64,000 bases of DNA from Pseudomonadales bacterium (GCA_020632255.1 JACKFX010000002.1:18905-82904); one strand, 5' to 3'. Shown: positions 1 through 48,997, numbered from the stretch's first letter. Program-made: numbers and translations. Notes: generated by a model not told the origin, from the letters alone.

Positions 1-466
1 ATCCTGTCCTTGCAAATTGAATTGCCCAGGGACTTACTCCTACAGACAAACAAGTTACCCAAACTGCGTGAACTGCTGGTATTGCTCTTTTCCGATATCG
101 TTTACTAAGATTCTGCAGAATACTGTACACGATGAGCACTGTTGCAATACCTGCAACTGCACTTGGAAATCGTACCGCAAAATTTGAAGGACCAAAAATG
201 AGTGAACTTACATACACTGTCCACAGATATACAGGCATTTTATAATCACCATATGATGGAAAGATTGCTTGAAACCAACCATTTCCATTCATATCTCTAC
301 CTGTTTCAACCAATGCTTTCGCATCTGCTAACATGGCAACCTCATCAATGTAGAGAGTTTTAGGAAGAGTTCCAAGTTTCCAAAAGCGCAGTCCAAGCAC
401 TAAAACTACGAGGAGAGCTGCACCAACAGTTAAAAGAAGGGAGACATTTCTAACTCTATTTTTCAT
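1..466 (-). CDS. GT-C family membrane glycosyltransferase (GT39/PMT/ArnT-like), 3'-truncated by window edge
   Basis: Minus-strand ORF not in the track because it runs off the edge. Hand translation from the ATG at 466..464 gives MKNRVRNVSLLLTVGAALLVVLVLGLRFWKLGTLPKTLYIDEVAMLADA...PSYGDYKMPVYLW. It has an N-terminal TM helix followed by the DE motif in the first loop, like its neighbours. It overlaps the stop of the upstream gene by about 11 nt. Confidence 0.55.
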   Translation of the reverse strand, partial: MKNRVRNVSLLLTVGAALLVVLVLGLRFWKLGTLPKTLYIDEVAMLADAKALVETGRDMNGNGWFQAIFPSYGDYKMPVYLWTVYVSSLIFGPSNFAVRFPSAVAGIATVLIVYSILQNLSKRYRKRAIPAVHAVWVTCLSVGVSPWAIQFARTG

Positions 467-2153
467 ACACCTCCCACAATGTTTCTCCAGTTGGACTTGA
501 AATTGAATCAACTAAATTAAACTCATTTGAAAAAGTTGTGATCCGCTCGGAAGGGGCAGCAAAAATAATGTCTGCGTCTGTTGCATCTGCCACAGAATCA
601 TAAAAAAAGATATTTTTGAAACTGGTAAACTCTGACTGATCAAATCTGGCCTGAGATCGAAAAGCCTGTACTTCTTTAGGATCTACTGCGTTCATAAAGA
701 AATAGTACATTGCAGGACGACCATATCCTCTAGTAAATGCCACCAGCTTTCCTGATTCTACATAGTGTTCTGCTTTGACAACTGCTTCCTGATACCCGTA
801 CTGCCACTCTAACGAGCTCTCGGCCGGATATATTTTTGTGTAGTACCGCCAGAAAAAGAACACTTGAACTGCATATAAACATAAAAAGACACATATAACA
901 CCGATGCCAACTCTTCTTTGTAGTTTTTTTTGATTCTTGACTAACAAAATCCAGCCCTCAGAAAAGCCGAGCGATGCAATAAAAAGCAACACAGGAGCAA
1001 TTGGTAGAATTCTTAAGGCATGCGGCGTTGCTAAAGAAATGCTGGCCGGAACTACTCCAGCTAAAATCCAGAATAGAAGAACTAACCCGAGCTTTCTATA
1101 CCTTTTAACCAAAGCATAAAATCCAACTAGTAGTAGTGGTAGATCTAGATAGTACAAATGTCCCATGTACCCAGTTGAGTGTCGTTTATTCAGGTCGCCA
1201 TGCACAAAAAGGAAATCCAAGGAAAAGTGTGAAAATAGATTTGAGACGATTTCACGACTAAATAGTACGTAGCGGTGAAAAAATAGTTTTGCACCTGGTG
1301 TTCCTGACAACTCACGCGCTTGATTGCTTTCCAAAATGATATCCAAGCGAGAAAATATGCTTGTCTCAGCAAAACGTTGTGATACTTCCGGACTTCGTAA
1401 ACTTGAAAGCAATGGCATCATTAACAGTAAAAATACTATGCCGATGCTAAACTCAAGTAATGGCACTGATGAAAATTTCTTTTTTTTCAGTTTCAGAAAG
1501 CGAGCTGCCTTTGGTACAAAACTGTACACAAGCAATGCCAAAAGAAGAGCTGGTGCAATAATTCTGGTTGCATGGTACGTATAGGCACTCAAGACGAAAA
1601 GAAGGACCGATAAAACAGACCATAGCCAAGATTTACCACGTACATAGAGTAAAAACAAAACTACTGCCCATACTACTAACGCTGTTGCTAGATTTACTTC
1701 CCAGGCAGCCCGAGAAAACATCAGCAACCAACTCGAAACTGCTGCCAACATTACGCTAGAGACCTGAACAATCTGTCGCTGTGAAACAGACATACGGGGA
1801 GCAAACTCGGTCAGCAACAAACGGGATAAGAAGTACATGCCTACAACAAGCGCCATACCTGCAATAAAACTTGGAAGTCGTACTGCCAAAATAGTTGGAC
1901 CAAACACCTTAATGCTTGCTGCAGCTGCATAAAAGTATCCAGATGGCTTCCAATCACCAAATGATTCAAAGGCAACAAGTGGCCAGAAATTTCCATGGTG
2001 ATCTGCCCCAGTACGGGCTATAGAATAGGCATCATAGCCAAGCGCCATCTCTTCCCAGTAGGGAGTAACAAGACGTCCTAAATTGAACCCTCTCAGAAAG
2101 AGTGCTAAGATAACAGCTACAGAAAGGGCACTAAGTACTATGTTCTTCTTCAT
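456..2153 (-). CDS. GT-C membrane glycosyltransferase, family 39 / PMT_2 (ArnT-like)
   Basis: Multi-TM protein with the motif ...YDAYSIARTG..HHGNFWPLVAFESFGDWKPSGYFY... typical of Dol-P-Man protein mannosyltransferase/ArnT relatives. Start moved to the in-frame ATG at 2153 (MKKNIVLSAL...). The track start at 2291 would overlap the divergent gene. Confidence 0.7.
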   Translation of the reverse strand: MKKNIVLSALSVAVILALFLRGFNLGRLVTPYWEEMALGYDAYSIARTGADHHGNFWPLVAFESFGDWKPSGYFYAAAASIKVFGPTILAVRLPSFIAGMALVVGMYFLSRLLLTEFAPRMSVSQRQIVQVSSVMLAAVSSWLLMFSRAAWEVNLATALVVWAVVLFLLYVRGKSWLWSVLSVLLFVLSAYTYHATRIIAPALLLALLVYSFVPKAARFLKLKKKKFSSVPLLEFSIGIVFLLLMMPLLSSLRSPEVSQRFAETSIFSRLDIILESNQARELSGTPGAKLFFHRYVLFSREIVSNLFSHFSLDFLFVHGDLNKRHSTGYMGHLYYLDLPLLLVGFYALVKRYRKLGLVLLFWILAGVVPASISLATPHALRILPIAPVLLFIASLGFSEGWILLVKNQKKLQRRVGIGVICVFLCLYAVQVFFFWRYYTKIYPAESSLEWQYGYQEAVVKAEHYVESGKLVAFTRGYGRPAMYYFFMNAVDPKEVQAFRSQARFDQSEFTSFKNIFFYDSVADATDADIIFAAPSERITTFSNEFNLVDSISSPTGETLWEVYEK

Positions 2154-2181
2154 ACCTTGTAAGAACAGTATATAGCCTGGA

Positions 2182-3303
2182 ATGAAAAAATTGAACAAGA
2201 CATTTCTACTTCCACTTATTGTGCTTATTGTTGCTCTGACCGTGTTACCTGTCCTGTCGTATCCCGCATTTTTCTTACAACCCACCAACATTTCTTCTTA
2301 TGGTCAGCTGTACGCCAACTCACAATATGTTGTAGGCGAAGCTACAAAGCAGCGGATAGACGATGCAACCATCTATATTTACGCAGGCTATGCCTACATA
2401 AAAGGGGAGGATCCCACTTCAATAAACTTCGAACATCCTCCACTTGGCAAATACGTACTTGGCCTCTCCTATGTTTTGTTTGAAAACTCACTAATCCTTA
2501 ATGTAGTTATCTACGCAGCGTTTTTAGGTGTTTTTGCATCATTGGCAAGGATTTTTACAAAAAACAACTGGCTTATTTTAGGATCAGTCCTTTTCTTAGG
2601 TACTACTCGACTGATCTATGTCAACGTGGGGCAGGGGATGCTAGACATTTTTTCGGCACTTCTCTTGTTAAGTACGTTTAGAGTTCTCTTCTCTTCTCTT
2701 CCTTCGTTGAAAAAATACATTTTTGCAGGGTTTCTTGTGGGAGCACTGGCTGCAACAAAATATCCTTTTCCATCAATTGCACTTCCAATCTTCTTACTAC
2801 TAGCATGGGCCTTCACACAAAAGGAGCTCATAAAAGGTCTCATCTCTTTACCAGTTATTGCTCTCACTTACCTGGGTAGTTATAGTGTTTATTTTTTACA
2901 TCATTCACTAACAGACTTCATTGCATTTGAATGGTTTAGACTCAAATGGTGGATTGTTGATCGAAATATTCCCCCGTTCCTCATTTTTCAAACACTTTTT
3001 TTTGGTGCCTTCAGGGACTGGAGAGACCTTCACATAGTGCGTTCTGCGGTGTGGTCTTTCAGCCTCCCTGTGCTATTTGTGTCGCAGTATGTTTCATTTC
3101 TGTTTACCAAGTTTGATATGAAATTGGTGGCTGTTCTTGGATACTCTACAACTCAAATAGTGCTGTATGGGCTAGGAGCTGCATCATACGATCGATATCT
3201 AATTTCGCTTATTCCACTCTGGCTACTTGTTTTTGTAGCTGGAATAGATCAATACAACAGCAAAAAAAACTATTTTTCTTTGCTTAAAAAAAGATTTACA
3301 TAA
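2182..3303 (+). CDS. GT-C membrane glycosyltransferase (PMT_2-like; HPPLGK motif)
   Basis: Signal/TM N-terminus and the ...EHPPLGKYVLGLSYVLF... motif diagnostic of the PMT/ArnT GT-C superfamily, in a multi-TM protein. Confidence 0.65.
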   Translation: MKKLNKTFLLPLIVLIVALTVLPVLSYPAFFLQPTNISSYGQLYANSQYVVGEATKQRIDDATIYIYAGYAYIKGEDPTSINFEHPPLGKYVLGLSYVLFENSLILNVVIYAAFLGVFASLARIFTKNNWLILGSVLFLGTTRLIYVNVGQGMLDIFSALLLLSTFRVLFSSLPSLKKYIFAGFLVGALAATKYPFPSIALPIFLLLAWAFTQKELIKGLISLPVIALTYLGSYSVYFLHHSLTDFIAFEWFRLKWWIVDRNIPPFLIFQTLFFGAFRDWRDLHIVRSAVWSFSLPVLFVSQYVSFLFTKFDMKLVAVLGYSTTQIVLYGLGAASYDRYLISLIPLWLLVFVAGIDQYNSKKNYFSLLKKRFT

Positions 3304-3306
3304 ACG

Positions 3307-4959
3307 TTACCACTTTACCGTTGTTGTATCAAAAATATAAAAGCGAGGTTTTCCATCACTACCGGAAACTACATATTCTGCCTTTTCGAATGGCATCACA
3401 TCATCAGGAGAGGTAACAATTATTGTATTATCTCTGTGCAAATCGCCCTCAACAAAACTATCTTGGAATAAGTACTTAATGAGCGACCCACCGTGAAAAT
3501 AAATGGGATTTGTTTTACGAGCAAACAATGCATAGATATAGGGCTGACCATACTTGGAAGTAAAAATAATGTTTTGTACTTCATGAGTGCCATTTGAACC
3601 GGTCTCGTATGGAATCACGTACTCAAAAGCAGCTAAATACCCGTCCTTAAATGCATCAGCACTATCCTGTGCAAAACCTTTAAAATAGTGAGAAACATAC
3701 TTGACAGCAAATAAAGTATGGAGGAGTACATAGGTGCCAATAATGAGCTGAAAATATATTGATTTCCTGTCCCTTGAATCGCGAAGCGACCGTACTTCTT
3801 GGTGTTGTTCTGCCCATCTGAGTAACTCCAAGATACCTACAACAGAAAGCATCCAAAATCCTACACTCGCAGTGAGTGCTCGATTACTATGAGGAACTTC
3901 AGTTGCAATCGCTGCTGGTAATATACCGAGCAAAATCAACACACCGGCAATGAGGCTCATGGTAACAATTTCTTTTGGTAGGCGATGCTTTTTATACAGA
4001 TTCCATGTTATCCATGTAATACATCCAAAAACTAATATAAAGGTAGTAGGATACAGCACACCATGAATACCATCTCCATGTCGCAAAGTCGTGGTTTCAC
4101 CAAACAAGAGAAAACTCGGATGCAAATGTGCTAAAAACTGTAAGGTAGCAAGCCTTGAAGCCTCAAGAAAACTGTAACCCTGCGCAAAAATAGTTACCCC
4201 TGCTCGTTCGAGTCCATTTCTGAAGAAGAGGTCAATGACTAACGGGATTATGCCAAGCACTCCTACAAAGGTGGGTATGACTGTAATTTTAATGTCTGAA
4301 AAAATCTGTTTTCTGTATAGCCACACCAGAAACAACCCCAAAAGTGGAGCTGAAACTTTAGTGCTGTGATAGGTGTATAACGAAAGAACCAACAACGACA
4401 CACTCCCTGATATCATGAAGATTTTCCATTTGCTGCTTTCCCATGCTGATATAAATAAGTACAAAGCCCAAATGATCATCGTTAATGCCAAACCAGATTC
4501 AAATCCGGTTCGGGTAAAATGTATATGCCAAGGCGATACAGCAACTATGAACCCGAGTAACAAACTTCCAAGCTCGGCATGTGGGTGCTTTCCAAGTATT
4601 TTCTTTGCAAGTAGGATACTTCCCACCACTGCCAGAACTCCTGACAGAGCAAAGGGCAATCTGACTACCCACAGTTCTAAGCCGAATAGCAGAGTAAAGA
4701 TTCCCGTCAAATAAATCGCAAAAGGAGCTTTGTAATCTCCAAATGATCTAAAGGAAAGTGGTAAAAAAGTGAGCCACTCATCTCTTCGAGTAGTTGCTAC
4801 AGCAAATCCGTTGTATCCAATCGCTGCTTCATCCCAAGTCATACCGTGAGGAACTTCGGCGAATTTGTGAAATCTAAGTACAGCAGCTACTGTGATAATT
4901 ATAAGAAAAGTAAGTACATACCAGTTTTTTGATACAAATTTCTGAAGATCAGTAATCAT
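3307..4959 (-). CDS. GT-C membrane glycosyltransferase, family 39/ArnT-like
   Basis: N-terminal TM then ...HGMTWDEAAIGYNGFAVATTRRDEWLTFLPLSFRSFGDYKAPFAIYLTG... (DE loop motif) followed by about 10 TM helices. Confidence 0.7.
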   Translation of the reverse strand: MITDLQKFVSKNWYVLTFLIIITVAAVLRFHKFAEVPHGMTWDEAAIGYNGFAVATTRRDEWLTFLPLSFRSFGDYKAPFAIYLTGIFTLLFGLELWVVRLPFALSGVLAVVGSILLAKKILGKHPHAELGSLLLGFIVAVSPWHIHFTRTGFESGLALTMIIWALYLFISAWESSKWKIFMISGSVSLLVLSLYTYHSTKVSAPLLGLFLVWLYRKQIFSDIKITVIPTFVGVLGIIPLVIDLFFRNGLERAGVTIFAQGYSFLEASRLATLQFLAHLHPSFLLFGETTTLRHGDGIHGVLYPTTFILVFGCITWITWNLYKKHRLPKEIVTMSLIAGVLILLGILPAAIATEVPHSNRALTASVGFWMLSVVGILELLRWAEQHQEVRSLRDSRDRKSIYFQLIIGTYVLLHTLFAVKYVSHYFKGFAQDSADAFKDGYLAAFEYVIPYETGSNGTHEVQNIIFTSKYGQPYIYALFARKTNPIYFHGGSLIKYLFQDSFVEGDLHRDNTIIVTSPDDVMPFEKAEYVVSGSDGKPRFYIFDTTTVKW

Positions 4960-5004
4960 ATAATTGCATAGTCATTACTACCAGGTTACTATACAGTATA
5001 TAGT

Positions 5005-6810
5005 ATGCAAAAGATTTTGACCTCCCTCATTCATCACACACACCGACGCTGGTTTTTTTTCTACCTGACAGGTTTTATACTCATACTAACTCTGCGCTTG
5101 TTTAACATTCATAGTATACCGGCAGTTATTAGCCATGATGAAATTTATTACCCGGCTGAAGCCCGTGCTATTGCTGTATCTGGTCACGATCCAGCAGGAA
5201 CTTGGGTCCCCTGGTCACTAACCTCTGCTCATCCACTCTATGCAGAATTGCCTGGATTAGTAATGACTCCAGCAGCAATACTTTTTTCTGATCCCTTACT
5301 CGCTGCTCGTATTACACATGTTTTAGTTGGATCACTCTTTTGTTTGGTGCTTTCTGCCTTTATGTACTCTTTAACCGAAAACAAGTACCTTGCTGCGATT
5401 ACTTTTGGTATTTCTGCTGTTAATCCCTGGCTGTTTCAATTTAGCCGGATGGGATTTGACGCACTACTGAGTCTCTTCTTTTTCTTTTCTGGGCTTACTC
5501 TCTATCTACGTTTACCTACTTACAAAAAGCTCTGGTCGCTACCATTTCTCTTTCTTGGCTTTTTCCAATATCAAGGTTTAAAGGTCATTTTTGTTCCCCT
5601 TATACTTGGTACAGTTTTTTTCGAATACTGGGTCAAAACAAGTTTGCCTTGGCAAAAATATCTCTCGCTCTTTAAAAAACGTAACACGTTACCTAAACAC
5701 ATTCCCGCCCTGATTGTTGCAGTTTTTTCTGTGGTACTCTTTGGTTCTTACATGGTACGACTCTCAAATCAAGCAGCTGGTGAGAGAAGCACTGATCTCA
5801 TTTTTTCAGATACAGCTTATACAACCACTCACACCAATACTGATAGACAACAATCACTGAACTCACCGCTTACAAAGGTATTCATCAATAAGGGCACAGT
5901 ACTGTTTGATCGGTTTATTTCCCAGTATTTCGAATCATTTTCATGGCACCATTTATTCATTACGGGCGAACCCCTACGCAACCCCTTTTCCGTCTGGAAA
6001 CATGGCATCTTTTATCTGCCTGATGTAATTTTAATTTTTTTGGGAGCAGTCTACTTACTCAAACACTCAGATAAAAAATATCACAAAATTGGTTGGTACC
6101 TTCTCTTTTTAGTACTCATCGCTCCTCTGGCTGGAGCAGTGAATGCAAAGGGTTCGTGGATCATGTTCCGCTCCAGTTTATTAATACCAACGGGAATCCT
6201 ACTTATAAGCTTTGGCGCCTGGTTTCTGTATACGCAACTACCGCGCCTTGTGTTTGCTTTGCTAGTAGTTCTCTATTCCCTCTTTGTAGCTCGTTTCTTC
6301 TTTCTCTATTTTTATTCCTACCCAATCATTGGAACCCAAGGAGAATATTTTAGTGAAAGAATTGTAGCCAACTATATTGAGAGAAATCCTGACAAGAAAA
6401 TTATCGTGTATGCCAGTGAACCAAGATTTATGTTTGAAACAGTGTTAGTTTTTAATAACCTCATTACAAAAGAGACTATTGCATCTATTACTACTGCCTA
6501 TCAAGAAAAAAAATACTCATTAGATAATTTCTTAATTACCAATACTTGTTATCAACCCCAAGCTGACAGCTCAGTTGTTTCAATAGTGAACAGAGCAACT
6601 CCAACCTGCGATGGTTCCAAAACAGAAAAGGCATCCACCGATACAGCTATTCCATCTCTTATTGATAGTGGTGCAATATACCGTCTGTATAATGATTCAC
6701 TTTGTAGTGGATACCCCCTTGGAACCTTCAGTCATATATCAACTAACAATTTTTATGTTGAAAAATTAACAAACACTGATTTTTGCTCATCTTTTTTCAC
6801 TCGGGAGTAA
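5005..6810 (+). CDS. GT-C membrane glycosyltransferase, family 39/ArnT-like
   Basis: ...ISHDEIYYPAEARAIAVSGHDPAGTWVPW... DE loop after the first TM, many TM helices, and a soluble C-terminal domain. Confidence 0.65.
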   Translation: MQKILTSLIHHTHRRWFFFYLTGFILILTLRLFNIHSIPAVISHDEIYYPAEARAIAVSGHDPAGTWVPWSLTSAHPLYAELPGLVMTPAAILFSDPLLAARITHVLVGSLFCLVLSAFMYSLTENKYLAAITFGISAVNPWLFQFSRMGFDALLSLFFFFSGLTLYLRLPTYKKLWSLPFLFLGFFQYQGLKVIFVPLILGTVFFEYWVKTSLPWQKYLSLFKKRNTLPKHIPALIVAVFSVVLFGSYMVRLSNQAAGERSTDLIFSDTAYTTTHTNTDRQQSLNSPLTKVFINKGTVLFDRFISQYFESFSWHHLFITGEPLRNPFSVWKHGIFYLPDVILIFLGAVYLLKHSDKKYHKIGWYLLFLVLIAPLAGAVNAKGSWIMFRSSLLIPTGILLISFGAWFLYTQLPRLVFALLVVLYSLFVARFFFLYFYSYPIIGTQGEYFSERIVANYIERNPDKKIIVYASEPRFMFETVLVFNNLITKETIASITTAYQEKKYSLDNFLITNTCYQPQADSSVVSIVNRATPTCDGSKTEKASTDTAIPSLIDSGAIYRLYNDSLCSGYPLGTFSHISTNNFYVEKLTNTDFCSSFFTRE

Positions 6811-6812
6811 GT

Positions 6813-8369
6813 ATGCTACACACAATCCTTAATTTGGCTAAAAAACACTTTCCCTTCCTTGTTTTATTGTGCGTCGCCGGGTTTCTCTATTTGTATAACC
6901 ATACAGGCTCATTACAACCCTGGGACGAAGCCTGGTATGGTGCCATAACTCAAAATATGATCAAATCAAATAATCCATTTGTTTTAGAGTATAATCAGCA
7001 CCCATTTTACGATCATCCTCCGTTTGGATTTCAACTTAAGGCACTGAGTATGCTTGTACTTGGAAGATCTACGCTCGCCATCCGCCTTCCTGAAATTGTT
7101 GCTGGTTTACTTGCGCTCGTTGCCTTATATAGAACCGGAACCACAGTAAGCTCGAAATGGGCAGGGGTATGGGCTGGAATAATACTTTTAACTTCTCGTT
7201 GGTTTCTCTTCAGAGCTCGATTAGGAAATCTAGATATACTTTTGGTAACAACTCAACTTTGGACGGTTACTGCTCTATTCGAGATGCTCAGTAAAAAGAG
7301 GCGCTCAATGAGATCACAAACAACCATCTCACTCCTCAGAAACCATGCATGGTTTGTTTTGATGTTTTTTTTCCTGAGTTTAAGTATTCTTAGCAAAGCC
7401 TTAATCTCACTACAATTAGTGCCGCTCGTAACCCTTGCAGGTCTTTACTATATATACACACATAAGCTGGACTTAAAAAGCGTAACCGTACTCATACTTT
7501 CTGCAGTTGTGGCACTAATAGGACCTCTGCTTCCGTGGATAGTAGCAAATAGTTTAGTAGATTCTACTGAATTCATCGAAACGCTTAAAACAATTGGCTT
7601 GCGTTCTAACACTACAAAAGCAATCCGTATTGAGTACATACAAACTGTAGTTACCTACACTCGAGCAGCTATGCATACATGGTTTAAAATTGGAGCCATT
7701 ACTATATTGATTTCTCTACCACTGCTTTTAATTAAAAAGCATAGAGCAACGTTCTTTTTCTTACTGGTATATGTCTTTTTAGCTTTTGCGCCCTATCTTA
7801 TTTCTGAAAAAACTGAAATTTGGCACTTGCTTCCTGGGATAGCAGCTCTTTCACTACTGATTGGAGTTGCACTTGATGTAAGCATTGCAGTGATATCAAA
7901 AAAATGCCAAAAGATTCTATCAGTTTTTCTTCCTCAAATTTCAAAACATATCACAGTTCTCTTAAAAGTTGGTCTATCGCTTAGTATCCTGACAATAGCC
8001 ACGCTTAATATTAAGAATTATTGGTCAGAATTCTTACATGTCTATCAATATCCAAGTGATTATGAAAAGATTACTTGGCATATTCCCTATAAAAACAAAC
8101 CACTCTATACCACAACAGACGCATACTTTCCTGGGCTGGTTTTCTACGCGAACTTGGATAACCAGCCTGTGCTGTACTTTAGTGATTCGGAGGATCTCCA
8201 AGTATGTCAAGAGATGATAGCCGCAAATACTCCATTACAAATTGTTTCTCGCTACGGTGACTGGGTCATGGATAGATTGGGTGACACATATCTTATTTCT
8301 CGTGAAGGAGATCTCGTACTTACAGTCCTATCACCTGAGGTTTGTAAAGAGTATGTTGTAACTAAATAA
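6813..8369 (+). CDS. GT-C membrane glycosyltransferase, family 39/ArnT-like
   Basis: ...QPWDEAWYGAITQNMIKSNNPFVLEYNQHPFYDHPPFGFQLKA... (both the DE and HPP motifs). Start moved to the ATG at 6813, which has a GGGAG RBS and lies 2 nt after the upstream stop. Confidence 0.7.
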   Translation: MLHTILNLAKKHFPFLVLLCVAGFLYLYNHTGSLQPWDEAWYGAITQNMIKSNNPFVLEYNQHPFYDHPPFGFQLKALSMLVLGRSTLAIRLPEIVAGLLALVALYRTGTTVSSKWAGVWAGIILLTSRWFLFRARLGNLDILLVTTQLWTVTALFEMLSKKRRSMRSQTTISLLRNHAWFVLMFFFLSLSILSKALISLQLVPLVTLAGLYYIYTHKLDLKSVTVLILSAVVALIGPLLPWIVANSLVDSTEFIETLKTIGLRSNTTKAIRIEYIQTVVTYTRAAMHTWFKIGAITILISLPLLLIKKHRATFFFLLVYVFLAFAPYLISEKTEIWHLLPGIAALSLLIGVALDVSIAVISKKCQKILSVFLPQISKHITVLLKVGLSLSILTIATLNIKNYWSEFLHVYQYPSDYEKITWHIPYKNKPLYTTTDAYFPGLVFYANLDNQPVLYFSDSEDLQVCQEMIAANTPLQIVSRYGDWVMDRLGDTYLISREGDLVLTVLSPEVCKEYVVTK

Positions 8370-8433: not shown

Positions 8434-8700
8434 TTAAAATGGTGATTGAAAAATAAGCTCTCGTTTTTCTTTTCTAGGCAATTTTTTGATTTCAGCCTCC
8501 CGTTGCAAAGCTGTTGATCTATCTTCAGCAGCCTCAGAATATGCTAATTCAACTGGTAAATGACTGCGTGTATACTTTGCACCTTTGCCAGCATTATGAA
8601 CACGAACACGAGACGTAACATCAGTTGTTACTCCTGTGTAGAGCGAACCATCTCCGCAACGCAAAACATACACGTACCATTTTTTTGTTTGAGTAGGCAT
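8434..8700 (-). CDS. GIY-YIG nuclease family protein (UPF0213-like)
   Basis: WYVYVLRCGDGSLYTGVTTDVTSRVRVHNAGKGAKYT is a classic GIY-YIG motif. Last gene of the minus-strand glycosyltransferase operon. Confidence 0.8.
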   Translation of the reverse strand: MPTQTKKWYVYVLRCGDGSLYTGVTTDVTSRVRVHNAGKGAKYTRSHLPVELAYSEAAEDRSTALQREAEIKKLPRKEKRELIFQSPF

Positions 8701-8703: not shown

Positions 8704-9567
8704 TTAGAGATACATCATCTTAAAGAGTCTAACGAACCAATACGGCTTCCATAATAGATACTGGAGATACTGTTTTCCAGTAGCATGCTTTACTATAAAA
8801 GCTGTCCCATTTTTAAGTGACATTCTGTCAATTCTTTTTTGTCCGAAAACACCTACATGAGTCGATTCATGTTTATGGAAGACAACTGCTTTTTCTTCAA
8901 ACAAGACTTTCCAACCTTTATTCTGTGCTCTAAATGAGAGATCAATATCTTCCCAATACGCTGGATAGAAACGTGTATCAAAGCCACCGAGCAACACCCA
9001 TTTCTCACGATCAAACAAACCACTTCCACCACTTACCCATGCCGTTTTACCAGATGTCATACTGCGCGCTTTTGAGTGCATAAACCGACCACGTTCAAAC
9101 CAAAGTAAGTTCCGTCCGCTAACCTCACCTGACCCATCTTGCTCATACTCTTTGCAACCAACAGCAAAGCAATCTGGCTCATCAAAATACGGAATCAAAT
9201 ACTGCAATACATCTTTTTCTGGAGAAACGTCATTATTCAGAAGAAAGATCAGTTCATTTCCTGCAACTTGGGCACCAACATTACATGCTCCGGCAAAACG
9301 CAGATTTCTTTGTGTTTGAACTAGAGTAACTTTTATGTGCTTCCCTTTTACTTTCCCTTCCCACATTTTTTCTGCTGAGCTCGGAATAAGGGCGAACTTC
9401 TTCGTTAAATAGTCACGAGTGGTATCGGTACCACAGTCATCAACAATAACAATTTCATCAGCCTCCCTAAGGCAATCAATGACAGCTGGTAAGTGCTGTT
9501 CTAGTAAATGTCTCCCATTATACGTAGGAATCAACACAGATACTCGTTTTGCAGCTCTATTTTTCAT
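8704..9567 (-). CDS. glycosyltransferase family 2
   Basis: VSVLIPTYNGRHLLEQHLPAVIDCL..IVIVDDCGTD and LLNNDV (DxD-like). Confidence 0.8.
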   Translation of the reverse strand: MKNRAAKRVSVLIPTYNGRHLLEQHLPAVIDCLREADEIVIVDDCGTDTTRDYLTKKFALIPSSAEKMWEGKVKGKHIKVTLVQTQRNLRFAGACNVGAQVAGNELIFLLNNDVSPEKDVLQYLIPYFDEPDCFAVGCKEYEQDGSGEVSGRNLLWFERGRFMHSKARSMTSGKTAWVSGGSGLFDREKWVLLGGFDTRFYPAYWEDIDLSFRAQNKGWKVLFEEKAVVFHKHESTHVGVFGQKRIDRMSLKNGTAFIVKHATGKQYLQYLLWKPYWFVRLFKMMYL

Positions 9568-10643
9568 GAAAAAAGCTCCTCAACTTTTGCTGCAAAGAGT
9601 GTTGAGTCAAAAAGAAAAGCCCTCTTAAATGCAGCTTGCTGTATTGTTTGATAATACTGCTTATTCTTTAGTAACTCAGCGGTAATAGTTAAGCACTGTT
9701 CACGGGTTGACCAAGAAAGCTCTGTACCTAAATCACCGAGAATTTCTGGTTGTCCTCCTTTAGCAAGTACCACTGGTACAACACTATATGCCATGGCTTC
9801 AACAGTTGTAATACCAAAATGTTCAACTTTTTCAGGATTTTTTTCTTCATCAACATCAAAACCCGTGGCATGCCAATACACAGCAGCTTTTTTGTAGTAT
9901 TCTTCTAGTTGAGAATGAGTGGCGTTCGGTACAAACTCTATGGGAAGTCCTTTAGCTTGTGCCTGTAATTCTTCAAAATACTTTTGATCCTCTACCTGTC
10001 CCACCAATATCAGCTTCCATCCTTTAGTAACTTTAGGGTGCCTTTCAGTAAGGCGTCTAAAAATATCAACAAGAATATCCTGACGTTTTGCATGAAGATG
10101 TTTGAAAAACCGACCAACGTGCAAAATTACTTTGTCTTTTTCTTTTATAAGTTTTTTTGGTACTTGTACCTGTGGATACAAAACAGTATCGACGTGAACA
10201 TGCCAAGATTTTTCAATAACCTTCTTTGTAAATTCGGAATTAGTATTAATATGCGACCAATTTTTCAGCTTCAGACGATCTATAATTGATGACTTATCTA
10301 ATTGAAGTGGAATCTGAATATGGAGATAATTTTTCCGTGCCAAACTAAAAAAGAGACTGCCGTCTGTCACACAGTACAAAGCATCAAAACCGGCAGTCCA
10401 CACCAACTTTTTAAGTATCGTTCCATTTTGCAACGGAGCCTTAACAAATTGGATGTCAGAGAGTGAAGTCCCCATAAACTCTTCATATTTTGAAACGATT
10501 TCAGGTATATCAAGCTCCTCTTTCTCTGGAATTACAATAACGACTTGATGTTTTTTGGCAACTACAAGAGCTACATCAAGTAAGTGTTTCTCGCCTCCAC
10601 CAGCATGTTTTGGAATGTAGGGTGAGTAGAAACAGATCTTCAT
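9564..10643 (-). CDS. glycosyltransferase family 4 (GT-B, RfaG-like)
   Basis: C-terminal EHFGITTVEAMAYSVVPVVLAKGGQPEI is the GT4 E-x7-E motif. ATGA overlap with the downstream gene. Confidence 0.8.
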   Translation of the reverse strand: MKICFYSPYIPKHAGGGEKHLLDVALVVAKKHQVVIVIPEKEELDIPEIVSKYEEFMGTSLSDIQFVKAPLQNGTILKKLVWTAGFDALYCVTDGSLFFSLARKNYLHIQIPLQLDKSSIIDRLKLKNWSHINTNSEFTKKVIEKSWHVHVDTVLYPQVQVPKKLIKEKDKVILHVGRFFKHLHAKRQDILVDIFRRLTERHPKVTKGWKLILVGQVEDQKYFEELQAQAKGLPIEFVPNATHSQLEEYYKKAAVYWHATGFDVDEEKNPEKVEHFGITTVEAMAYSVVPVVLAKGGQPEILGDLGTELSWSTREQCLTITAELLKNKQYYQTIQQAAFKRAFLFDSTLFAAKVEELFS

Positions 10644-11470
10644 GACTCACGCTTCCATTTTTTTTGAATTTCCTCTTCTAAATGAGAATATCGTTCAGGG
10701 ATCGAAGGCTTTTGCTGCAACTCCCAAACCTGCATGTACACCCACATTCGGTTAATCGCTTGAATGAGTGACTCAATCAATCCAACAGTTCCATCTTTGT
10801 ATCCTGCATCACGGAAAGCGCGACGCCAGAACTCCATGAATCCTTTACGAAGAATTGTTTTAAATGTTACTGGAGCATTACCTGCTTCAATGAATGCGCG
10901 TGCTTCTTTTGGTGTCCATTCTGCACTTTTTTTAAGATTATCTACAACCGATCGATGGGTAAAATGCAACAAAAATGACTGAAGAACTACTTCATCTCCA
11001 CTCCAAACTGGGCTCTCATGAATTTCACCTTTCCATCCAGAAAGTGCCGAAGCTTTAAAGGCTCGGGTTACAACATCATGTTGCCATCCACCATACGAAA
11101 AAGGGTGACCTAAAAAGTAATTTTTTCGCTTCATACTTATCGCAACAGCTGCACCTGTCTCAATTTGAACAGCAATCTCTTTTGCAAGTATGGGAGTGAC
11201 ACGTTCATCGGCATCGATATACAAGATCCAATCTGTTTCAGTATGCTTGAGTGCCTCTTCACGAACCCGAGCAAATGAGTGTGAAGAAAAAGATATGACC
11301 CTAGCACCAAGTGCTTCTGCTTTTTTGGCTGTTGCATCGGTAGAACCATTATCAATTACCAAAATTTCATCACACCACCTCAACGTTTCTATACAAACAT
11401 CAATCATCTGTTCTTCATTCTTAGCAATGATCACAGCCGTGATAGTAGGTCGTTTTAATTTTGTTGTCAT
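10640..11470 (-). CDS. glycosyltransferase family 2
   Basis: ITAVIIAKNEE..ILVIDNGSTD..YIDADE. 4-nt overlaps with both neighbours. Confidence 0.8.
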   Translation of the reverse strand: MTTKLKRPTITAVIIAKNEEQMIDVCIETLRWCDEILVIDNGSTDATAKKAEALGARVISFSSHSFARVREEALKHTETDWILYIDADERVTPILAKEIAVQIETGAAVAISMKRKNYFLGHPFSYGGWQHDVVTRAFKASALSGWKGEIHESPVWSGDEVVLQSFLLHFTHRSVVDNLKKSAEWTPKEARAFIEAGNAPVTFKTILRKGFMEFWRRAFRDAGYKDGTVGLIESLIQAINRMWVYMQVWELQQKPSIPERYSHLEEEIQKKWKRES

Positions 11471-12378
11471 ACAATAGTTTGCTTTCCAAATCTCCTCAGC
11501 ACGAAATGGAGAACTGCTGTTCGTTGAGCCTGTGACCCCAAAACATACTGTAACAGAACTCTTACACCAGTGATTTTTGCTTTGATAAACCCATGTTTTT
11601 CTGTAAAGAGCAATCTATTCCTTGCGAGATAATAGTGATGAAGACTTGAGCCCGCTCCACCACTCGAACCCGCATTTTTATGCCAAATGACTGCATCAGG
11701 ACAGAACCCAATCTTATACCCAGCGCGCTCTGTGCGAACACTTAGATCGACGTCTTCAAAGTAAAGAAAAAACCGTTTATCAAAAGTTCCAACTTTTTCG
11801 AGTACTTCGCGTCGAATGAGGACACAACACCCTGTTGCAAAATCAGACTCTGAAAACTCATCAAACTGTCCCCTGTCGACTTCGTCCACTCCGCGATGAA
11901 ATGCGGCCAAGTTTTGCCAATCGATGCTCCCTCCTGCGTACCATAACACAGAACCCAACTCATCACGCGAATAACTTTTTTTGTGGAACTCATTGCCTTT
12001 ATAAAAATAAATTTTGGGGGCTATCATTCCATAGTCGAGATGTTCTTGACTGCACTCCACTAAGTCCTGGAGAAATTGAGATGAGACAGTAGTGTCGTTA
12101 TTTAGTAAGAGCACATAGTCTGAGTTATATTTTTCTACTGCATAGTAAATTCCGAGATTGTTTCCACCAGTAAAACCAAGGTTTGCCTCACTTCGAACCA
12201 CTTCAAATTTTTTGTTGTTTTGAAATGATCTTGGCAAAGTATACTCATTCATGGATCCATTATCGACAATGACCGCATTCCAACTAATAGCTCTGGTTTT
12301 AATGACGGCTAACGACTTAAGACACTCATCAGTGTCTGGTTTGGTGTTATAGTTAACAATAATAATGCTGACGTGCAT
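11467..12378 (-). CDS. glycosyltransferase family 2 (rhamnosyltransferase-like)
   Basis: VSIIIVNYNTKPDTDECLKSL..VIVDNGS..LLLNNDT. Confidence 0.8.
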   Translation of the reverse strand: MHVSIIIVNYNTKPDTDECLKSLAVIKTRAISWNAVIVDNGSMNEYTLPRSFQNNKKFEVVRSEANLGFTGGNNLGIYYAVEKYNSDYVLLLNNDTTVSSQFLQDLVECSQEHLDYGMIAPKIYFYKGNEFHKKSYSRDELGSVLWYAGGSIDWQNLAAFHRGVDEVDRGQFDEFSESDFATGCCVLIRREVLEKVGTFDKRFFLYFEDVDLSVRTERAGYKIGFCPDAVIWHKNAGSSGGAGSSLHHYYLARNRLLFTEKHGFIKAKITGVRVLLQYVLGSQAQRTAVLHFVLRRFGKQTIV

Positions 12379-12387
12379 GCGTGGTTA

Positions 12388-13290
12388 TTATAATCCAAAT
12401 TTTCGCCTCATTCGAGCAAAAAGACGAATAAGACCACTACTTTTTCTAATTTTGTATGTAAGCATCCAATACCGTAGCTCCTTATCAAATTCTCGAAGTG
12501 CAGAAAGTGTAGCTCGCTCAGTGAGTGCTTCTTCTTTGAATCCTTGCTTTTCCCAAATCTTGAGTACTACTAAGATCTGATAAAAACTTTGGAGAAAACT
12601 TAAACTAACTCCGTGCATGCCCTCACTCAAGCCCTCATTTTTAAACAATCGTCGAAAAAATTCATCCTTAAATGCACCAAAGACCTCGGTTGGTGTCGTT
12701 GAAGCCTCTCCAACATTGTTCGCCTCAATACTGGTGTAATTGTTCATCCGTTCAACAAATTGAGAAATATGTTGGTAGTTATGATGCAAAATTGCCACAG
12801 ACTCATCACTTGGTAAGTACTCAACTTTTCCAGTGACTTTTGGAACAGAGTGTATTTGATCATCCCAAGTGACTGTTCCAGCTTTGAATAAACGCAACTG
12901 ATGGTCAGGCCACCAACCAGTTTTTCGAAGCTCTTTGCCAAATACTTCATTCGATCGAGGAATGAAATAAGCATCGGCGCTTGGATCGGCTACTAACTGA
13001 AGGATTCTTTGCTGTAATCTTTCTGGCACTTCTTCATCTGCGTCCAAAATTAAGATCCAATTGCCAGAGGCCTTGCTAATAGCAAAGTTCCGTGCAGGCT
13101 CAACGTAACCCACATCATCAAATGTATAGAAATGGTTAGTGGCAGACTTGGCAATTTTTTGAGTAGTATCAGTACTGTGCATGTCAACTACGACAATTTC
13201 ATCTGCAAACGTAACTGACTTCAATGCTTTATCTAAGAAGGCCTCAGAATTCTTCGTATTAATAACAACAGATAATAACGGTTGTTGCAT
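12388..13290 (-). CDS. glycosyltransferase family 2
   Basis: LSVVINTKNSEAFL..IVVVDMHSTD..ILDADEE. Confidence 0.8.
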   Translation of the reverse strand: MQQPLLSVVINTKNSEAFLDKALKSVTFADEIVVVDMHSTDTTQKIAKSATNHFYTFDDVGYVEPARNFAISKASGNWILILDADEEVPERLQQRILQLVADPSADAYFIPRSNEVFGKELRKTGWWPDHQLRLFKAGTVTWDDQIHSVPKVTGKVEYLPSDESVAILHHNYQHISQFVERMNNYTSIEANNVGEASTTPTEVFGAFKDEFFRRLFKNEGLSEGMHGVSLSFLQSFYQILVVLKIWEKQGFKEEALTERATLSALREFDKELRYWMLTYKIRKSSGLIRLFARMRRKFGL

Positions 13291-13292
13291 AC

Positions 13293-14864
13293 TTACCTTA
13301 AACTTTTGATTTCTCGTACCAGTGTATCACGCCCAATCAGGATAAAGGTAACACAATAGACTATACTAACTAACAGCGCTCCACAACCAAGATGATACAA
13401 ACTTTGACCCCAAATATCTCGACCAAACCACCCCACAAGTGCCATGGCAACTGCAGCAACTGTTTGTCTCCAAATTGATCCGAAAAAATTAATCGGCACG
13501 AACTTCTTGACATAATATGCAGGAAGCAGCGACGTAAATGAAATGATAAATGCTGCAACAGCAACACCCTCATACCCATAGTACTTCATCAACACTGGAG
13601 TAAATACCCAAGTCATAGATGTCCACATAACCATAAGTTTAAGTGTAATGTTAATTTTGCCAATAGCATTCAGTGTGTTTGCTAGCGGGGTTGATACTGC
13701 ACTCCATCCAATTCCCAACGTAAATAATATTAAACTAGCCAGTGCCGGTCTCCATTTATCGTAGACCGGGAAAACATCAATAACTGGCTCGATAAAGACA
13801 GACATACCCACCAAGATTGGGAAAATTGCGGCTGTAATAAAGAAAAGAGACTTCTCAATGGCTTTTTTTAGTGCTTCTGTGTGGCTTTGTAGTCTAGAGA
13901 ATGCAGGAAAGGTTACAGACATCACATTTTGAACAGTCAACGTATAAGGATACATTGACCACTGCTTTGCCCAAGTAATGTAGCCAAACTCTTTATTTGG
14001 TAGTACCAACCCTAAGAAAATGTAAAAGAGTTGGTCTTTAATTCGAGCTAAGAAGTCGTTAACCTGAAACTTAGCCCCATACCCAAACAATCCTTTGAGT
14101 GCATTGGTATGAATGGCAATTCCAAACTCCCAAGGTTGCAGCAACGTCATGCTCACAGCTCCAACGACCGAACGCAAAATAATTGCGTAAGCATATGAAA
14201 TCAGTCCGTACCCGTTTAAAACCAAGTAGATTAAACTCCCCTGGAAAACTATCTGCTCGAATACCTGTGGCAAAACTAACTTGGAAAAGTCTAGTTTTCT
14301 CTCAAGAATAACTGATGGAATGGTTTTGATCGTCGCCAGCGGGAAAGAAAGACCCATGGCAATCAAAATCCATATTCCCTCTGAACCAGCTTTGTCTCGG
14401 AAAAGTGTTGTTTGGGCTACAAAGAGTGTTAAGCCCACAATCACCCAACTAAGAATTTGTTGCACAGTAAATGCAGTTCGATAATCCTCTTTTGTTGGTT
14501 CACCTTTTTTCTGAATCAGCGCTGCTGCCAAACCAATGTCGGCAAAGAATGTCAGCAATCCAACAACTTGAACTACCACACCATACACACCATAATCAGA
14601 CGGAGAAAGATACGCACTCAGTATTGCGTTTGCTCCAAAACCAATTAACTGTAGCATGCCTGTTCGAATAAAATAGGAAATTGCGCCAGTCACTGATCGC
14701 TTTTTGATCGTTTGCAATGCTTCAGCTTCAGCCTGCTCCCCAATTTGTTCTTGTTGCGGAAATCCTGCTTCGGTCTCACTTGAAACTTCTTGTTCAAAAA
14801 CTGCTTCGCCTTGTTCACGAACTAGCTTCCTGTGTGCTCGTTTCTGAAAGAATGAACCAAACAT
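13293..14864 (-). CDS. wzx: polysaccharide/O-unit flippase (Wzx, MOP superfamily)
   Basis: 12-14 TM helices with the Polysacc_synt-like N-terminus (IKKRSVTGAISYFIRTGMLQLIGFGANAILSAYLSPSDYGVYGVV). About 50-aa acidic N-terminal extension. Start overlaps the upstream stop. Confidence 0.7.
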   Translation of the reverse strand: MFGSFFQKRAHRKLVREQGEAVFEQEVSSETEAGFPQQEQIGEQAEAEALQTIKKRSVTGAISYFIRTGMLQLIGFGANAILSAYLSPSDYGVYGVVVQVVGLLTFFADIGLAAALIQKKGEPTKEDYRTAFTVQQILSWVIVGLTLFVAQTTLFRDKAGSEGIWILIAMGLSFPLATIKTIPSVILERKLDFSKLVLPQVFEQIVFQGSLIYLVLNGYGLISYAYAIILRSVVGAVSMTLLQPWEFGIAIHTNALKGLFGYGAKFQVNDFLARIKDQLFYIFLGLVLPNKEFGYITWAKQWSMYPYTLTVQNVMSVTFPAFSRLQSHTEALKKAIEKSLFFITAAIFPILVGMSVFIEPVIDVFPVYDKWRPALASLILFTLGIGWSAVSTPLANTLNAIGKINITLKLMVMWTSMTWVFTPVLMKYYGYEGVAVAAFIISFTSLLPAYYVKKFVPINFFGSIWRQTVAAVAMALVGWFGRDIWGQSLYHLGCGALLVSIVYCVTFILIGRDTLVREIKSLR

Positions 14865-16612
14865 TAGACTGTAGCCCTCCTAAAAAATCTTTTTTTATTC
14901 TGAACTGCAAACAAGCAGAGTACCATTACAAAGCTAAAGAATGAAGTCACATCGCTCCAATCCCTAGTTTGAGTACCCCTAAGTTGCACGCCAACAAATT
15001 CTGTTTGTGCTGGTATGTTCGCTGTAATCAATCCATTTTCATTTTGAAAATGAGGAATTTCATTTGTATCAGCAGTCACCACCCAACCTGGAAAATCACT
15101 AATAGCAAAAGTCAGTGTTGTTTCGCCAGAGAGAGGTGGCACAAACTTGAAAAGTTTTTCATGTCCACGATTGACAAGCAGTTCATGCTCACATACCTCA
15201 CCATCACACAACACTTCATAGGTCGGTGGGTGAATGTCTTCAAGCTGAACACCAGTTGGAATATAGTCTGGCAGAATCTCACTCATGTGTGACTCGACTC
15301 GATCGGGATCATCATAATAGAGACCCGAGATATCTTGGTAGTATTCTTCTGGTCTAAAGTAAAATACAGAGGAAACTACAATCAAAATATACATCACCAC
15401 AATGTAAGTTCTGGCCGCTCTACCTTTAATAAAGAAATACGGTACACCAAACAGCAACGCAGCTGCCAAGGATGCAACAGATAAATAGCGCCATGGGAAC
15501 TGGATAAATGATAAGAAGCTCAATGCTCGCCAAATACCAATTGAGCGCTGTAGTGACATGTACAGCGACCCACCTAGCATGAACACTACTGCTAGGCTGA
15601 TCAAGTATTTTTTCTCCAACACAAGACTTAAGTTCTTCTTATTTTTAAGATCTTTAATAAACTGCCGACCGGTAATAACAGCAACAATCACAAACACTAA
15701 TACTTGAGCTGTACCCAAATAGAATGAGATTGGATCCCCGGGACCCCACTCTGAACCTCCATAACCCCACTCACCACTAAAGAACTGACGAATATATAAA
15801 AAGTGAAGCGAAAAGTCGAAATATCCAGATAAAATAGTGTTCTCTATTTGGGTGTACTGTTTTTCTAAAAGTGCTGGAAACATATAAAATGCAGTCAGTC
15901 CAAGAGAAAGACCCGCGCTTCCAACCAATGATCCGAGGTACTCCAGTGTGCTACGTACATCATGATCACTTTCAGTATATTTTAGCCAGAGCATGACCAA
16001 GGCAAATACCGCAATAAATGGAGCTGCAATTATAGCAGTTAAGTTATGACTGAGTAATAAGATGACTAAGCCAGCCGTAGTCGCCCAAAAACCGTGCCAT
16101 TTATCGGTGCGGGCAACACTGATTCCATACAGAATCCACGGTAGTGCCATCATTCCCCAAGCTTCACTTAAGGCACCGCGGACAAATAGATTAAGAGCTC
16201 TATATGGGGCAAGTGTATACGCAGCTGAAACGAGTACCCCTGCCGACTTATGCGAAAACAATTGCTTACCTAGATAGTAAGCACCAAATGCCGTTCCAAT
16301 AGAACAAAGCCAGAACAGCAACTTCACCGAAGTTACCAACGGCAGACCCAACTGATAAAAAAGGCTTCCTACGTAATACGGAAGTGGCGCATAAAACTCA
16401 AAAAGTGGCATGCCGTAGCCATATCCAAAGTGTTCTGACCAACGCACGGGGAATTGTCCTTCTCCAAGCGCTCGAGTCATTTCAGCAATTCTGACTCCAT
16501 GAATAAAATCATGAATCTTGAACATACCTTGAGGAAAAAGAGACCAACTGGCACCTAAAATGATCAATCCAAGTGTAAGGCAAAGAAGTAGAGTCCGTTT
16601 CATCTCTGTCAT
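14864..16612 (-). CDS. integral membrane protein, putative GT-C-type glycosyltransferase/polymerase
   Basis: About 11 TM helices plus a roughly 150-aa C-terminal soluble domain. First gene of the operon with Wzx and the GT2/GT4 genes. No diagnostic motif recognised. Confidence 0.4.
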   Translation of the reverse strand: MTEMKRTLLLCLTLGLIILGASWSLFPQGMFKIHDFIHGVRIAEMTRALGEGQFPVRWSEHFGYGYGMPLFEFYAPLPYYVGSLFYQLGLPLVTSVKLLFWLCSIGTAFGAYYLGKQLFSHKSAGVLVSAAYTLAPYRALNLFVRGALSEAWGMMALPWILYGISVARTDKWHGFWATTAGLVILLLSHNLTAIIAAPFIAVFALVMLWLKYTESDHDVRSTLEYLGSLVGSAGLSLGLTAFYMFPALLEKQYTQIENTILSGYFDFSLHFLYIRQFFSGEWGYGGSEWGPGDPISFYLGTAQVLVFVIVAVITGRQFIKDLKNKKNLSLVLEKKYLISLAVVFMLGGSLYMSLQRSIGIWRALSFLSFIQFPWRYLSVASLAAALLFGVPYFFIKGRAARTYIVVMYILIVVSSVFYFRPEEYYQDISGLYYDDPDRVESHMSEILPDYIPTGVQLEDIHPPTYEVLCDGEVCEHELLVNRGHEKLFKFVPPLSGETTLTFAISDFPGWVVTADTNEIPHFQNENGLITANIPAQTEFVGVQLRGTQTRDWSDVTSFFSFVMVLCLFAVQNKKRFFRRATV

Positions 16613-16707
16613 TCTATCAGGGAACTATGCCGAGTTACAATCCGCTTTTCTTTTATCATCAGAGCCTTCATGGTATACAATGTAAGAACATACTTAAAGG
16701 TTTGTCT

Positions 16708-17853: not shown

Positions 17854-17859
17854 TCTCAT

Positions 17860-48996: not shown

Positions 48997-48997
48997 A

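Follow-up and report, generated by a model that had tools for sequence, protein, structure and literature searches.

An alternating-strand array of GT-C-type glycosyltransferase genes in a Microgenomates-group bacterium and its probable place in a cell-envelope glycan locus

Why does a bacterium carry six adjoining genes for multi-pass membrane proteins of one broad class, and why do these genes alternate between the two strands of its DNA? The question is raised by positions 1-8369 of a 64,000-nucleotide (nt) stretch deposited as Pseudomonadales bacterium (GCA_020632255.1, JACKFX010000002.1:18905-82904; hereafter the window), where the genes, g1 to g6, follow one another in the strand order -,-,+,-,+,+ in the list of open reading frames (ORFs). 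A sequence-only reading of the window had described this run of six consecutive genes, its strand order, a 2-nt gap between g5 and g6 and an 11-nt overlap between g2 and g1 (456-466), and all of these features were reproduced. Following the array to the left of the window on a 146-kb contig that includes it (Logan SRR12358675_416666), we found twelve contiguous GT-C genes in all (A''-A'-A, B-C-D-E-F, G, H and I-J), in which g1 to g6 are E to J, respectively. With moderate confidence we read the six genes as part of a ~35-kb cell-envelope glycan locus, in which an old co-directional backbone with accessory GT-C insertions would carry out the stepwise glycosylation of a polymer outside the membrane.

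On the minus strand, g1 (E; 1-466) encodes the N-terminal 155 amino acids (aa) of a 573-aa protein that continues beyond the window, g2 (F; 456-2153) encodes a 565-aa protein with a C-terminal extracytoplasmic alpha/beta domain and g4 (H; 3307-4959) a 550-aa protein. The plus strand carries g3 (G; 2182-3303), encoding a membrane-only protein of 373 aa, g5 (I; 5005-6810), encoding a 601-aa protein with a four-cysteine C-terminal domain, and g6 (J; 6813-8369), encoding a 518-aa protein. Taken mechanically, the g2 ORF reaches 2291, with 46 extra upstream codons (2154-2291) that overlap the g3 start by 110 nt; the ATG at 2153 is preferred, as gene callers, the NCBI protein MCB9800816.1, to which g2 is identical, and the homologue alignment agree on it. 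By crude hydropathy, each of the six proteins has a short Lys/Arg-bearing N-terminus, a first transmembrane (TM) helix and then an acidic loop of 50-100 aa (loop 1). All six had been credited with DE and HPP motifs in this loop. The acidic pair was indeed found in every one of them, as DE in g1, g4, g5 and g6 and in variant form in g2 (EE) and g3 (DD), but only g3 (H85-P-P) and g6 (H68-P-P) have a true HPP; g5 has HPL, and g1, g2 and g4 have G-D-[YW]-K-x-P.

All six genes encode GT-C-fold glycosyltransferases of the broad ArnT/PMT/STT3-like class, as shown by Pfam matches, phmmer ties and the fold matches of AlphaFold 2 (AF2) models taken together. Against PMT_2 (PF13231, gathering threshold 26.1 bits), g4 scored 35.4 bits and g6 42.0 bits, and g1 was borderline, at 28.5 bits as the fragment in the window and 25.1 bits at full length. 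Phmmer joined g1, g2, g4 and g5 in one subfamily (E from 2e-11 to 3e-53; hereafter subfamily I), with g3 and g6 outside it; g1 matched g2 at 3e-53, and the more divergent g5 matched g1 at 1.7e-14 and g2 at 2e-11. Sequence-profile searches against the PDB were uninformative and fold comparison was therefore needed, so the structures of g2 and g3 were predicted from homologue alignments and compared by Foldseek. The g2 model (predicted local distance difference test, pLDDT, 89.8) was matched best by STT3, AglB and ArnT at E of about 1e-7, then by PglB, Pmt4, ALG12/9, AftA and Emb. The g3 model (pLDDT 92.4) was matched best by ArnT (5f15, the top match, and 5ezm; E of about 1e-4), then by AglB, AftA, PIG-M, Pmt4, ALG9, PglB and PimE. 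Both models matched almost only GT-C structures. The g3 family is small (32 clusters, some with PF13231 or PF02366), and D61 is invariant across it. Searched with the subfamily-I profile, a set of 1.84 billion representatives (metagenomes) yielded 5,237 clusters (50% identity) at E <= 1e-30 and 11,346 at E <= 1e-10; subfamily I is therefore a large family, despite having no Pfam model of its own.

Narrower assignments were tried and rejected. The label GT39/PMT-type, under which the genes had first been described, could not be kept, as the PMT (PF02366) threshold of 22.7 bits was missed by all six: the g1 fragment came closest at 21.5 bits, the remainder gave no match, and g2, g3 and g5 were without any Pfam match. 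Only the neighbouring gene C exceeded this threshold (28.6 bits). NCBI already names some of these proteins 'glycosyltransferase family 39 protein'. The GT83 ArnT equivalog (NF009784) was rejected at 32 bits for g6 and 25 bits for g1 against a cutoff of 567, with no ArnA or ArnB found. An oligosaccharyltransferase (GT66) identity was rejected as well, the W[WYF]DxG pattern being found nowhere among 19 GT-C-like proteins. Equally, an O-antigen ligase or Wzy was rejected, with no such Pfam match and with WaaL (7tpg) ranking 47th, at a Foldseek probability of 0.44, for the g2 model. On this last point the sequence-only reading, which had proposed lipid-linked-sugar-type GT-C transferases rather than O-antigen ligases, was borne out.

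Phmmer links also connect A, D, E, F, H and I, which make up the six subfamily-I groups. All of these groups keep a putative catalytic set, [D/E]34-E35, D51, R148, E152, Y193 and R381 (g2 numbering), and at about a dozen positions, including 32, 33, 41, 52, 53, 194, 197 and 320-325, each group has fixed residues of its own. Such a residue pattern is what would be expected of old, functionally specialised enzymes, and would fit neither recent copies nor dead scaffolds. In g5 (6400-6810) and its paralogue A'' (L093 9460-10001), the extracytoplasmic C-terminal domain carries four similarly spaced Cys and is absent from the other subfamily-I members; it may be a disulfide-bonded acceptor-binding module.

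The host is a Microgenomates-group bacterium of the candidate phyla radiation (CPR), and its NCBI label 'Pseudomonadales' is wrong. The same DNA occurs in two NCBI metagenome-assembled genomes (MAGs), one named 'Candidatus Woesebacteria bacterium' (GCA_020429005.1) and the other 'Pseudomonadales bacterium'; at the species level, the host's closest relatives are MAGs of Candidatus Pacebacteria and Patescibacteria. Many MAGs titled 'uncultured Pseudomonadales bacterium' (L012, L015, L018, L020 and others) are Patescibacteria/Microgenomates by gene content and neighbours, in what looks like systematic taxonomic mislabelling. According to the main text of a CPR protein-family paper (PMC6744442), the CPR envelope is thought to be Gram-positive-like and to lack an outer membrane, and many Microgenomates-enriched families are hypothetical membrane proteins. 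Loop 1, which hydropathy, the positive-inside rule and the fold matches would place outside the membrane, is therefore better called extracytoplasmic than 'periplasmic', the term used of these transferases at first.

To place the array in its lineage, we compared 80 related loci from species-representative genomes, many of them incomplete and 45 of them full-length (~21 kb). Orthologues were labelled by best hit, as iterated family hidden Markov models were unusable owing to cross-matching between GT-C groups. Best-hit counterparts were found in all 80 loci for F (g2), in 61 for H (g4), in 47 for E (g1) and in 43 for D, a 524-aa subfamily-I protein with a PMT_2 match encoded on the minus strand to the left of the window; median identity was 37-42%, and it reached 58-66% in the closest relative. 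A co-directional layout recurs in these relatives: K-Wzx-GT2d-GT2c-GT2b-GT4-GT2a-H-F-E-D-GT2(256)-GT4(347)-K/B-epimerase-GT2(230)-DUF2304. It is supported by gene-order maps of 14 relatives, by H, F, E and D occurring in that order in 35 of the 80 loci and by H lying directly upstream of, and adjacent to, F in 63. Among the 45 full-length loci, each of the five cytoplasmic transferases is present in 34-41, Wzx in 27 and the GT2-GT4 pair after D in 30. In the genome under study every backbone gene is present, in the same order and on the minus strand throughout, g4, g2 and g1 included.

The plus-strand genes (g6 with g5, g3, and A, A' and A'') are extra GT-C genes inserted antisense between backbone genes, and C and B are extra genes in the sense direction. 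Five of these extra genes lie to the left of the window: A (+, 564 aa, subfamily I), A' (+, 468 aa, PMT_2 32 bits, with a DE...HPP motif in loop 1), A'' (+, 613 aa, matching its paralogue g5 at E 1e-36), C (-, 478 aa, PMT_2 48 bits) and B (-, 573 aa, PTPS_related 56 bits). In other species the accessory genes seldom lie within 10 kb of F: G (g3) was found there in six of the 80 loci, I (g5) in nine, C in five and J (g6) in one (L017, in the same antisense position). They are often antisense elsewhere too, as are J in L017, G in L019, L036 and L056, and I in L012 and L042. A C-like GT-C guessed to lie in the relatives' 1.8-kb gap after D was rejected, as this gap holds a GT2 and a GT4.

The order -,-,+,-,+,+ therefore reads as backbone (g1, g2), accessory (g3), backbone (g4) and accessory (g5, g6), and the strands would alternate because accessory genes were inserted antisense, rather than through the repeated duplication with inversion that had been proposed for a paralogue array. 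That proposal does not suit genes that each have their own orthologues in dozens of Pacebacteria, Woesebacteria and Microgenomates genomes and that share 24-37% pairwise identity over partial lengths, or none detectable by BLAST; set against the median of 37-42% between orthologues, these values suggest that the paralogues diverged long ago. The closest relative (L009; F 58% identical, proteins ~58-70%) has the layout I-H-G-F-E-D-C-B-A-A', and the insertions therefore predate the split from it. Exactly between GT2a and the antisense g6-g5 insertion lies an 88-aa ORF with a GIY-YIG nuclease domain (66 bits; 8434-8700, minus strand), which may be the remnant of a mobile element involved in insertion.

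Could the array instead be a recently amplified, fast-varying contingency locus, in which duplication with inversion or phase variation would diversify a surface glycan, for example in phage escape or host switching? The accessory GT-C content does vary between species, a GIY-YIG gene stands at an insertion junction, and g3 is frameshifted at a T8 homopolymer in L004. However, the paralogues are as divergent as described, L009 has the same layout at ~58-70% protein identity, the lone homopolymer difference may be an assembly error, and the copies of the locus in five samples show 99.95-100% identity over 7.7-17 kb. Chiefly because of this last result we regard a contingency locus as very improbable. 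The suggestion that the system is variable thus stands for the accessory gene set, which differs between species, and falls for the five-sample copies. The homopolymer itself (2996-3003) is T7 in L004, an independent assembly (SRR26387399; L004 3117), in which g3 is split into ORFs of 88 aa and 281 aa; every other copy is intact, and either slipped-strand variation or a mistake in assembly could account for the difference.

How would such interleaved genes be expressed? Each gene had been thought to need its own promoter. As judged by spacing, g2 and g1 run into an operon of five overlapping genes, F-E-D-C-B (overlaps of 8-37 nt), of which they are genes 1 and 2, and g5 and g6 lie only 2 nt apart and would be co-transcribed; the array of twelve is therefore divided into five transcription units rather than one per gene, namely F-E-D-C-B, A''-A'-A, G alone, H alone and I-J. 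The divergent spacer between g2 and g3 (2154-2181, 28 nt) contains CAGTATATAG at 2166-2175. The spacer between g4 and g5 (4960-5004, 45 nt) contains ACTATACAGTATATAGT, with arms ACTATA/TATAGT, and a second CAGTATATAG at 4994-5003 that forms part of the palindrome ACTATA-CAGTA-TATAGT. Both spacers have conserved counterparts in L009, upstream of 7142/7188 and 9971/10001. The window holds no other exact copy of CAGTATATAG, and the two copies stand just upstream of the start codons of g3 and g5; with up to one mismatch there were 10 matches against 3 expected, a number reached by 0 of 100 shuffles. The first genes of units have no Shine-Dalgarno sequence and carry TATA-rich -10-like hexamers 7-9 nt before the ATG (TATAAT in A''), and the internal gene g1 has GGAGG. 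These features suggest back-to-back promoters with leaderless or very short-leader mRNAs, which a sigma-70 scan did not confirm, and CAGTATATAG could be back-to-back -10 elements or a shared operator.

What, then, would these enzymes do? To the right of g6 come the GIY-YIG ORF, four GT2 genes, a GT4 gene, Wzx and K, followed by a LytR-CpsA-Psr (LCP) ligase gene and RmlB, RmlC and RmlD. The cytoplasmic transferases GT2a, GT4, GT2b, GT2c (rhamnosyltransferase-like) and GT2d, together with the Wzx flippase (13293-14864), occupy 8704-14864 on the minus strand. K (14864-16612, minus strand), which heads the backbone, is a 582-aa PTPS_related protein (PF10131, 33.1 bits against a cutoff of 26.4) with a weak GT-C_AftD match. 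The LCP ligase and the dTDP-rhamnose genes RmlB, RmlC and RmlD lie at 16627-20590 on the plus strand. To the left of A'' are GT2-256, GT4-347, K2 (PTPS_related, like B and K), a 390-aa multi-TM protein, a GalE-like epimerase, a PpgS-like GT2, DUF2304 and an AglJ-like GT2. The PpgS-like GT2 and DUF2304 are neighbours in a way that we take to resemble the mycobacterial PpgS/Rv3632 pair. The 390-aa protein (L093 3440-4612, minus strand, ~14.4-15.6 kb left of position 1), between K2 and the epimerase, has no Pfam or NCBIfam match; it resembles gene C weakly (phmmer E 4.5e-4) and is possibly one more divergent GT-C.

Wzx, LCP, RmlBCD and Gmd give the envelope-polymer reading a pathway context, with genes for both dTDP-rhamnose and GDP-mannose-derived sugars. 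Four GT2s on the contig best match PpgS, PgfS, ArnC, AglJ or Dol-P-hexose transferase, one being fused to GtrA and one adjoining DUF2304; since these matches fall below equivalog cutoffs, the assignments hold at family level only. Judging from this gene context (the GT2s, the GtrA fusion, DUF2304 and Wzx), the six GT-C enzymes would use polyprenyl-phosphate-linked sugar donors. In the proposed pathway, GT2s of PpgS/PgfS/ArnC/AglJ type would load sugars onto polyprenyl phosphate and the other GT2 and GT4 enzymes would assemble a lipid-linked oligosaccharide. GtrA-type and Wzx flippases would then carry the lipid-linked sugars to the outer face of the membrane, where each GT-C paralogue would transfer one particular sugar or linkage onto a wall-anchored polymer, or possibly onto surface proteins. 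The polymer would probably contain rhamnose, and the LCP enzyme would attach it; the lineage-wide steps would fall to H, F, E and D, and species-specific decorations to the accessory GT-Cs.

The GT-Cs might instead be protein O-glycosyltransferases, PMT-like or akin to Pgf of Streptococcus mutans, with different acceptor proteins served by different paralogues; their targets would be Ser/Thr residues on the cell surface, for example in pilins, S-layer proteins or sortase substrates. This would agree with the PMT_2 and weak PMT matches, with the PMT-like DE...HPP motif in loop 1 of g3, g6 and A', with Pmt4 and Pmt1/2 among the structural matches and with the GT2s that best match the protein-glycosylation enzymes PgfS and AglJ. 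The best match of Wzx is likewise an 'O-glycosylation flippase', though at 101 bits against a cutoff of 720. However, none of the six passes PF02366, and ArnT, STT3 and AglB outrank the PMTs structurally. That five cytoplasmic GT2/GT4 genes and Wzx stay tightly linked to the GT-Cs across relatives, joined here by LCP and Rml, fits polymer assembly better. Moreover, no gene for a Ser/Thr-rich acceptor or secreted protein was seen in the gene tables of the window or in its low-GC stretch at 34-40 kb. We therefore consider protein O-glycosylation possible but doubtful.

The conservation of the backbone bears on another alternative, in which H, F, E and D, and perhaps others, would form one hetero-oligomeric GT-C machine, some of its subunits being perhaps mainly structural. 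The H-F-E-D order and co-directionality are conserved across many species, overlapping stop and start codons suggest coupled translation, and heteromeric GT-C precedents, EmbA-EmbB (7bvc) and Pmt1-Pmt2 (6p25), are among the structural matches. Yet all groups keep the putative catalytic residues and therefore none looks like a pure scaffold, and in some relatives (L039, L041, L047) the order is F-D-E or H is missing from the locus, so that we hold such a machine to be unlikely. A bolder form of the polymer reading is that the H-F-E-D quartet, with Wzx, the GT2/GT4 genes and PTPS_related proteins, is the assembly line for an undescribed wall glycopolymer of the Microgenomates group, maybe hetero-oligomeric, with the antisense GT-Cs tuning host attachment or phage escape. 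We offer this as a speculation with rather poor odds; if it were true, the polymer would be a CPR counterpart of arabinogalactan or teichoic acids.

Several points weigh against the envelope-glycan reading with its backbone and insertions. The donor, acceptor and product of the GT-C enzymes are all inferred. The GT2 matches to polyprenyl-phosphate-sugar synthases are all far under equivalog cutoffs, and no priming phosphoglycosyl transferase was identified in the window. In the full-length loci of relatives, LCP was found near the core in only nine of 45 and RmlD in four of 45. No Pfam model matched g2, g3, g5, A, A'' or L (a GT-C-like gene described below), and sequence profiles run against the PDB gave little or nothing, one (A1) finding no match and the other (A2) ArnT at best, with E 0.14. 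Orthology was taken only from best hit and gene order, and the transcription units were deduced from gene spacing only. Finally, the sigma-70/terminator scan returned fewer promoter-like sites than did shuffles, with none in the short divergent spacers.

Which known systems does the locus resemble? Three- and four-component and 'complex' GT-C systems glycosylate the rhamnose wall polysaccharides of Gram-positive bacteria (PMC9574508). In these, a polyprenyl-phosphate sugar is made by a GT-A enzyme, which a small membrane activator sometimes assists, a GtrA/Wzx-type flippase carries it across the membrane and a poorly conserved GT-C transfers the sugar to the polymer outside; in the 'complex' version, cytoplasmic transferases build a lipid-linked oligosaccharide, Wzx flips it and GT-Cs polymerise or transfer it. 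Examples are GacI/J/K/L of Streptococcus pyogenes and CsdAB/CflA and WpsA-J of Lactococcus lactis (PMC9574508). A polyprenyl-phosphate-sugar GT-A, a GtrA/Wzx flippase, GT-Cs and nearby Rml and LCP genes are likewise all on the contig studied here, and the GT-Cs of the published systems are also recognisable mainly by their fold likeness to ArnT or AglB. Unlike those systems, which have one or two GT-Cs per locus, this locus has 12 contiguous and ~18 in ~83 kb, keeps a four-paralogue core, H-F-E-D, across a class-level CPR lineage, shows no ABC-transporter rhamnan pathway and belongs to an uncultured, reduced-genome CPR host.

The mycobacterial and corynebacterial arrays (EmbC-EmbA-EmbB, AftA-D, MptA-D, PimE; PpgS/Rv3632/Rv3779) are also comparable, as many specialised and partly tandem GT-Cs there build wall polysaccharide or lipoglycan outside the membrane from polyprenyl-phosphate sugars, as is proposed here. 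A PpgS-like GT2 beside a small DUF2304 membrane protein is common to both, and AftA, Emb, AftB, AftD and PimE are among the structural matches of g2 and g3. In contrast, sequence similarity is negligible (10-16% in structural alignments), the Emb-type C-terminal carbohydrate-binding modules are absent here, and the lineage is another one with a far smaller genome. Within the ArnT (GT83) and PMT_2/RgtA-D-like group, ArnT is the best or joint-best structural match of g3 and g2, PMT_2 matches g4, g6 and others, and the G-D-[WY]-K-P segment aligns with the K-P-P segment of ArnT. Unlike ArnT, these proteins score 25-32 bits against an NCBIfam cutoff of 567 and lack an ArnA/ArnB context; nor would a CPR cell, having no outer membrane, be expected to carry lipid A (PMC6744442). 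Similarly, the top g2 matches STT3 and AglB share with it, as does PglB (GT66), a TM core and a C-terminal extracytoplasmic domain, and a Wzx-dependent lipid-linked oligosaccharide pathway adjoins; unlike in that family, WWDxG is absent and identity is 10-15%.

Further GT-C genes lie elsewhere in the window, on the minus strand. L (42982-44718) is a 578-aa GT-C-like protein without a Pfam match and a paralogue of the protein at 51121 (phmmer 3.5e-14). A second glycosylation cluster (47446-57205) holds GT-C M (47446-48996, PMT_2 27.5 bits), N (48998-50344, precomputed PF26314, MptA_B) and O (51121-52686, PMT_2 36.5 bits), together with a polyprenyl-phosphate-sugar synthase-like GT2, a GT2 with GtrA, Gmd, an epimerase/reductase and an NDP-sugar dehydrogenase. 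The estimate of 10 or more such genes in the window agrees with our count of 11 (the six and those at 14864, 42982, 47446, 48998 and 51121), and a very high density was also found, at ~18 GT-C-like genes in ~83 kb. That density had been called extraordinary, whereas relatives carry a median of six GT-C-like genes per 21.6-kb locus; the expansion is therefore typical of the lineage, with this genome at its high end. Elsewhere, a low-GC island (~34000-38000; 34% against ~41%) with a positive GC-skew blip and small to medium ORFs without Pfam matches sits between genes for a Na+/H+ exchanger and a DinB-type polymerase; it may be acquired DNA.

As individual genes, these are new members of the known GT-C superfamily and their identity is ordinary; their scale, their conservation in a reduced-genome lineage and the envelope polymer that they imply are not. 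No description of a GT-C expansion in CPR/Patescibacteria and no mention of the subfamily-I family was found in the literature searched, and the main text of PMC6744442 contains no glycosyl- or mannosyl- terms. Equally, that literature yielded no description of a ~17-gene backbone built around four GT-C paralogues and conserved across Microgenomates-group CPR, of its growth to 12 contiguous GT-Cs or of the antisense-insertion pattern. The lesson for annotation is that the alternating strands here mark accessory genes placed antisense in an ancient backbone, and not a duplication array of recent origin. Although CPR genomes are tiny and many biosynthetic pathways are missing from them, this bacterium gives ~18 genes for large membrane enzymes to sugar chemistry at the outer face of the membrane, and the core machinery is kept across Pacebacteria, Woesebacteria and Microgenomates. 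This provides a defined gene set for testing and points to a major uncharacterised envelope glycan, likely central to the wall integrity of these episymbionts and to their contact with the host.

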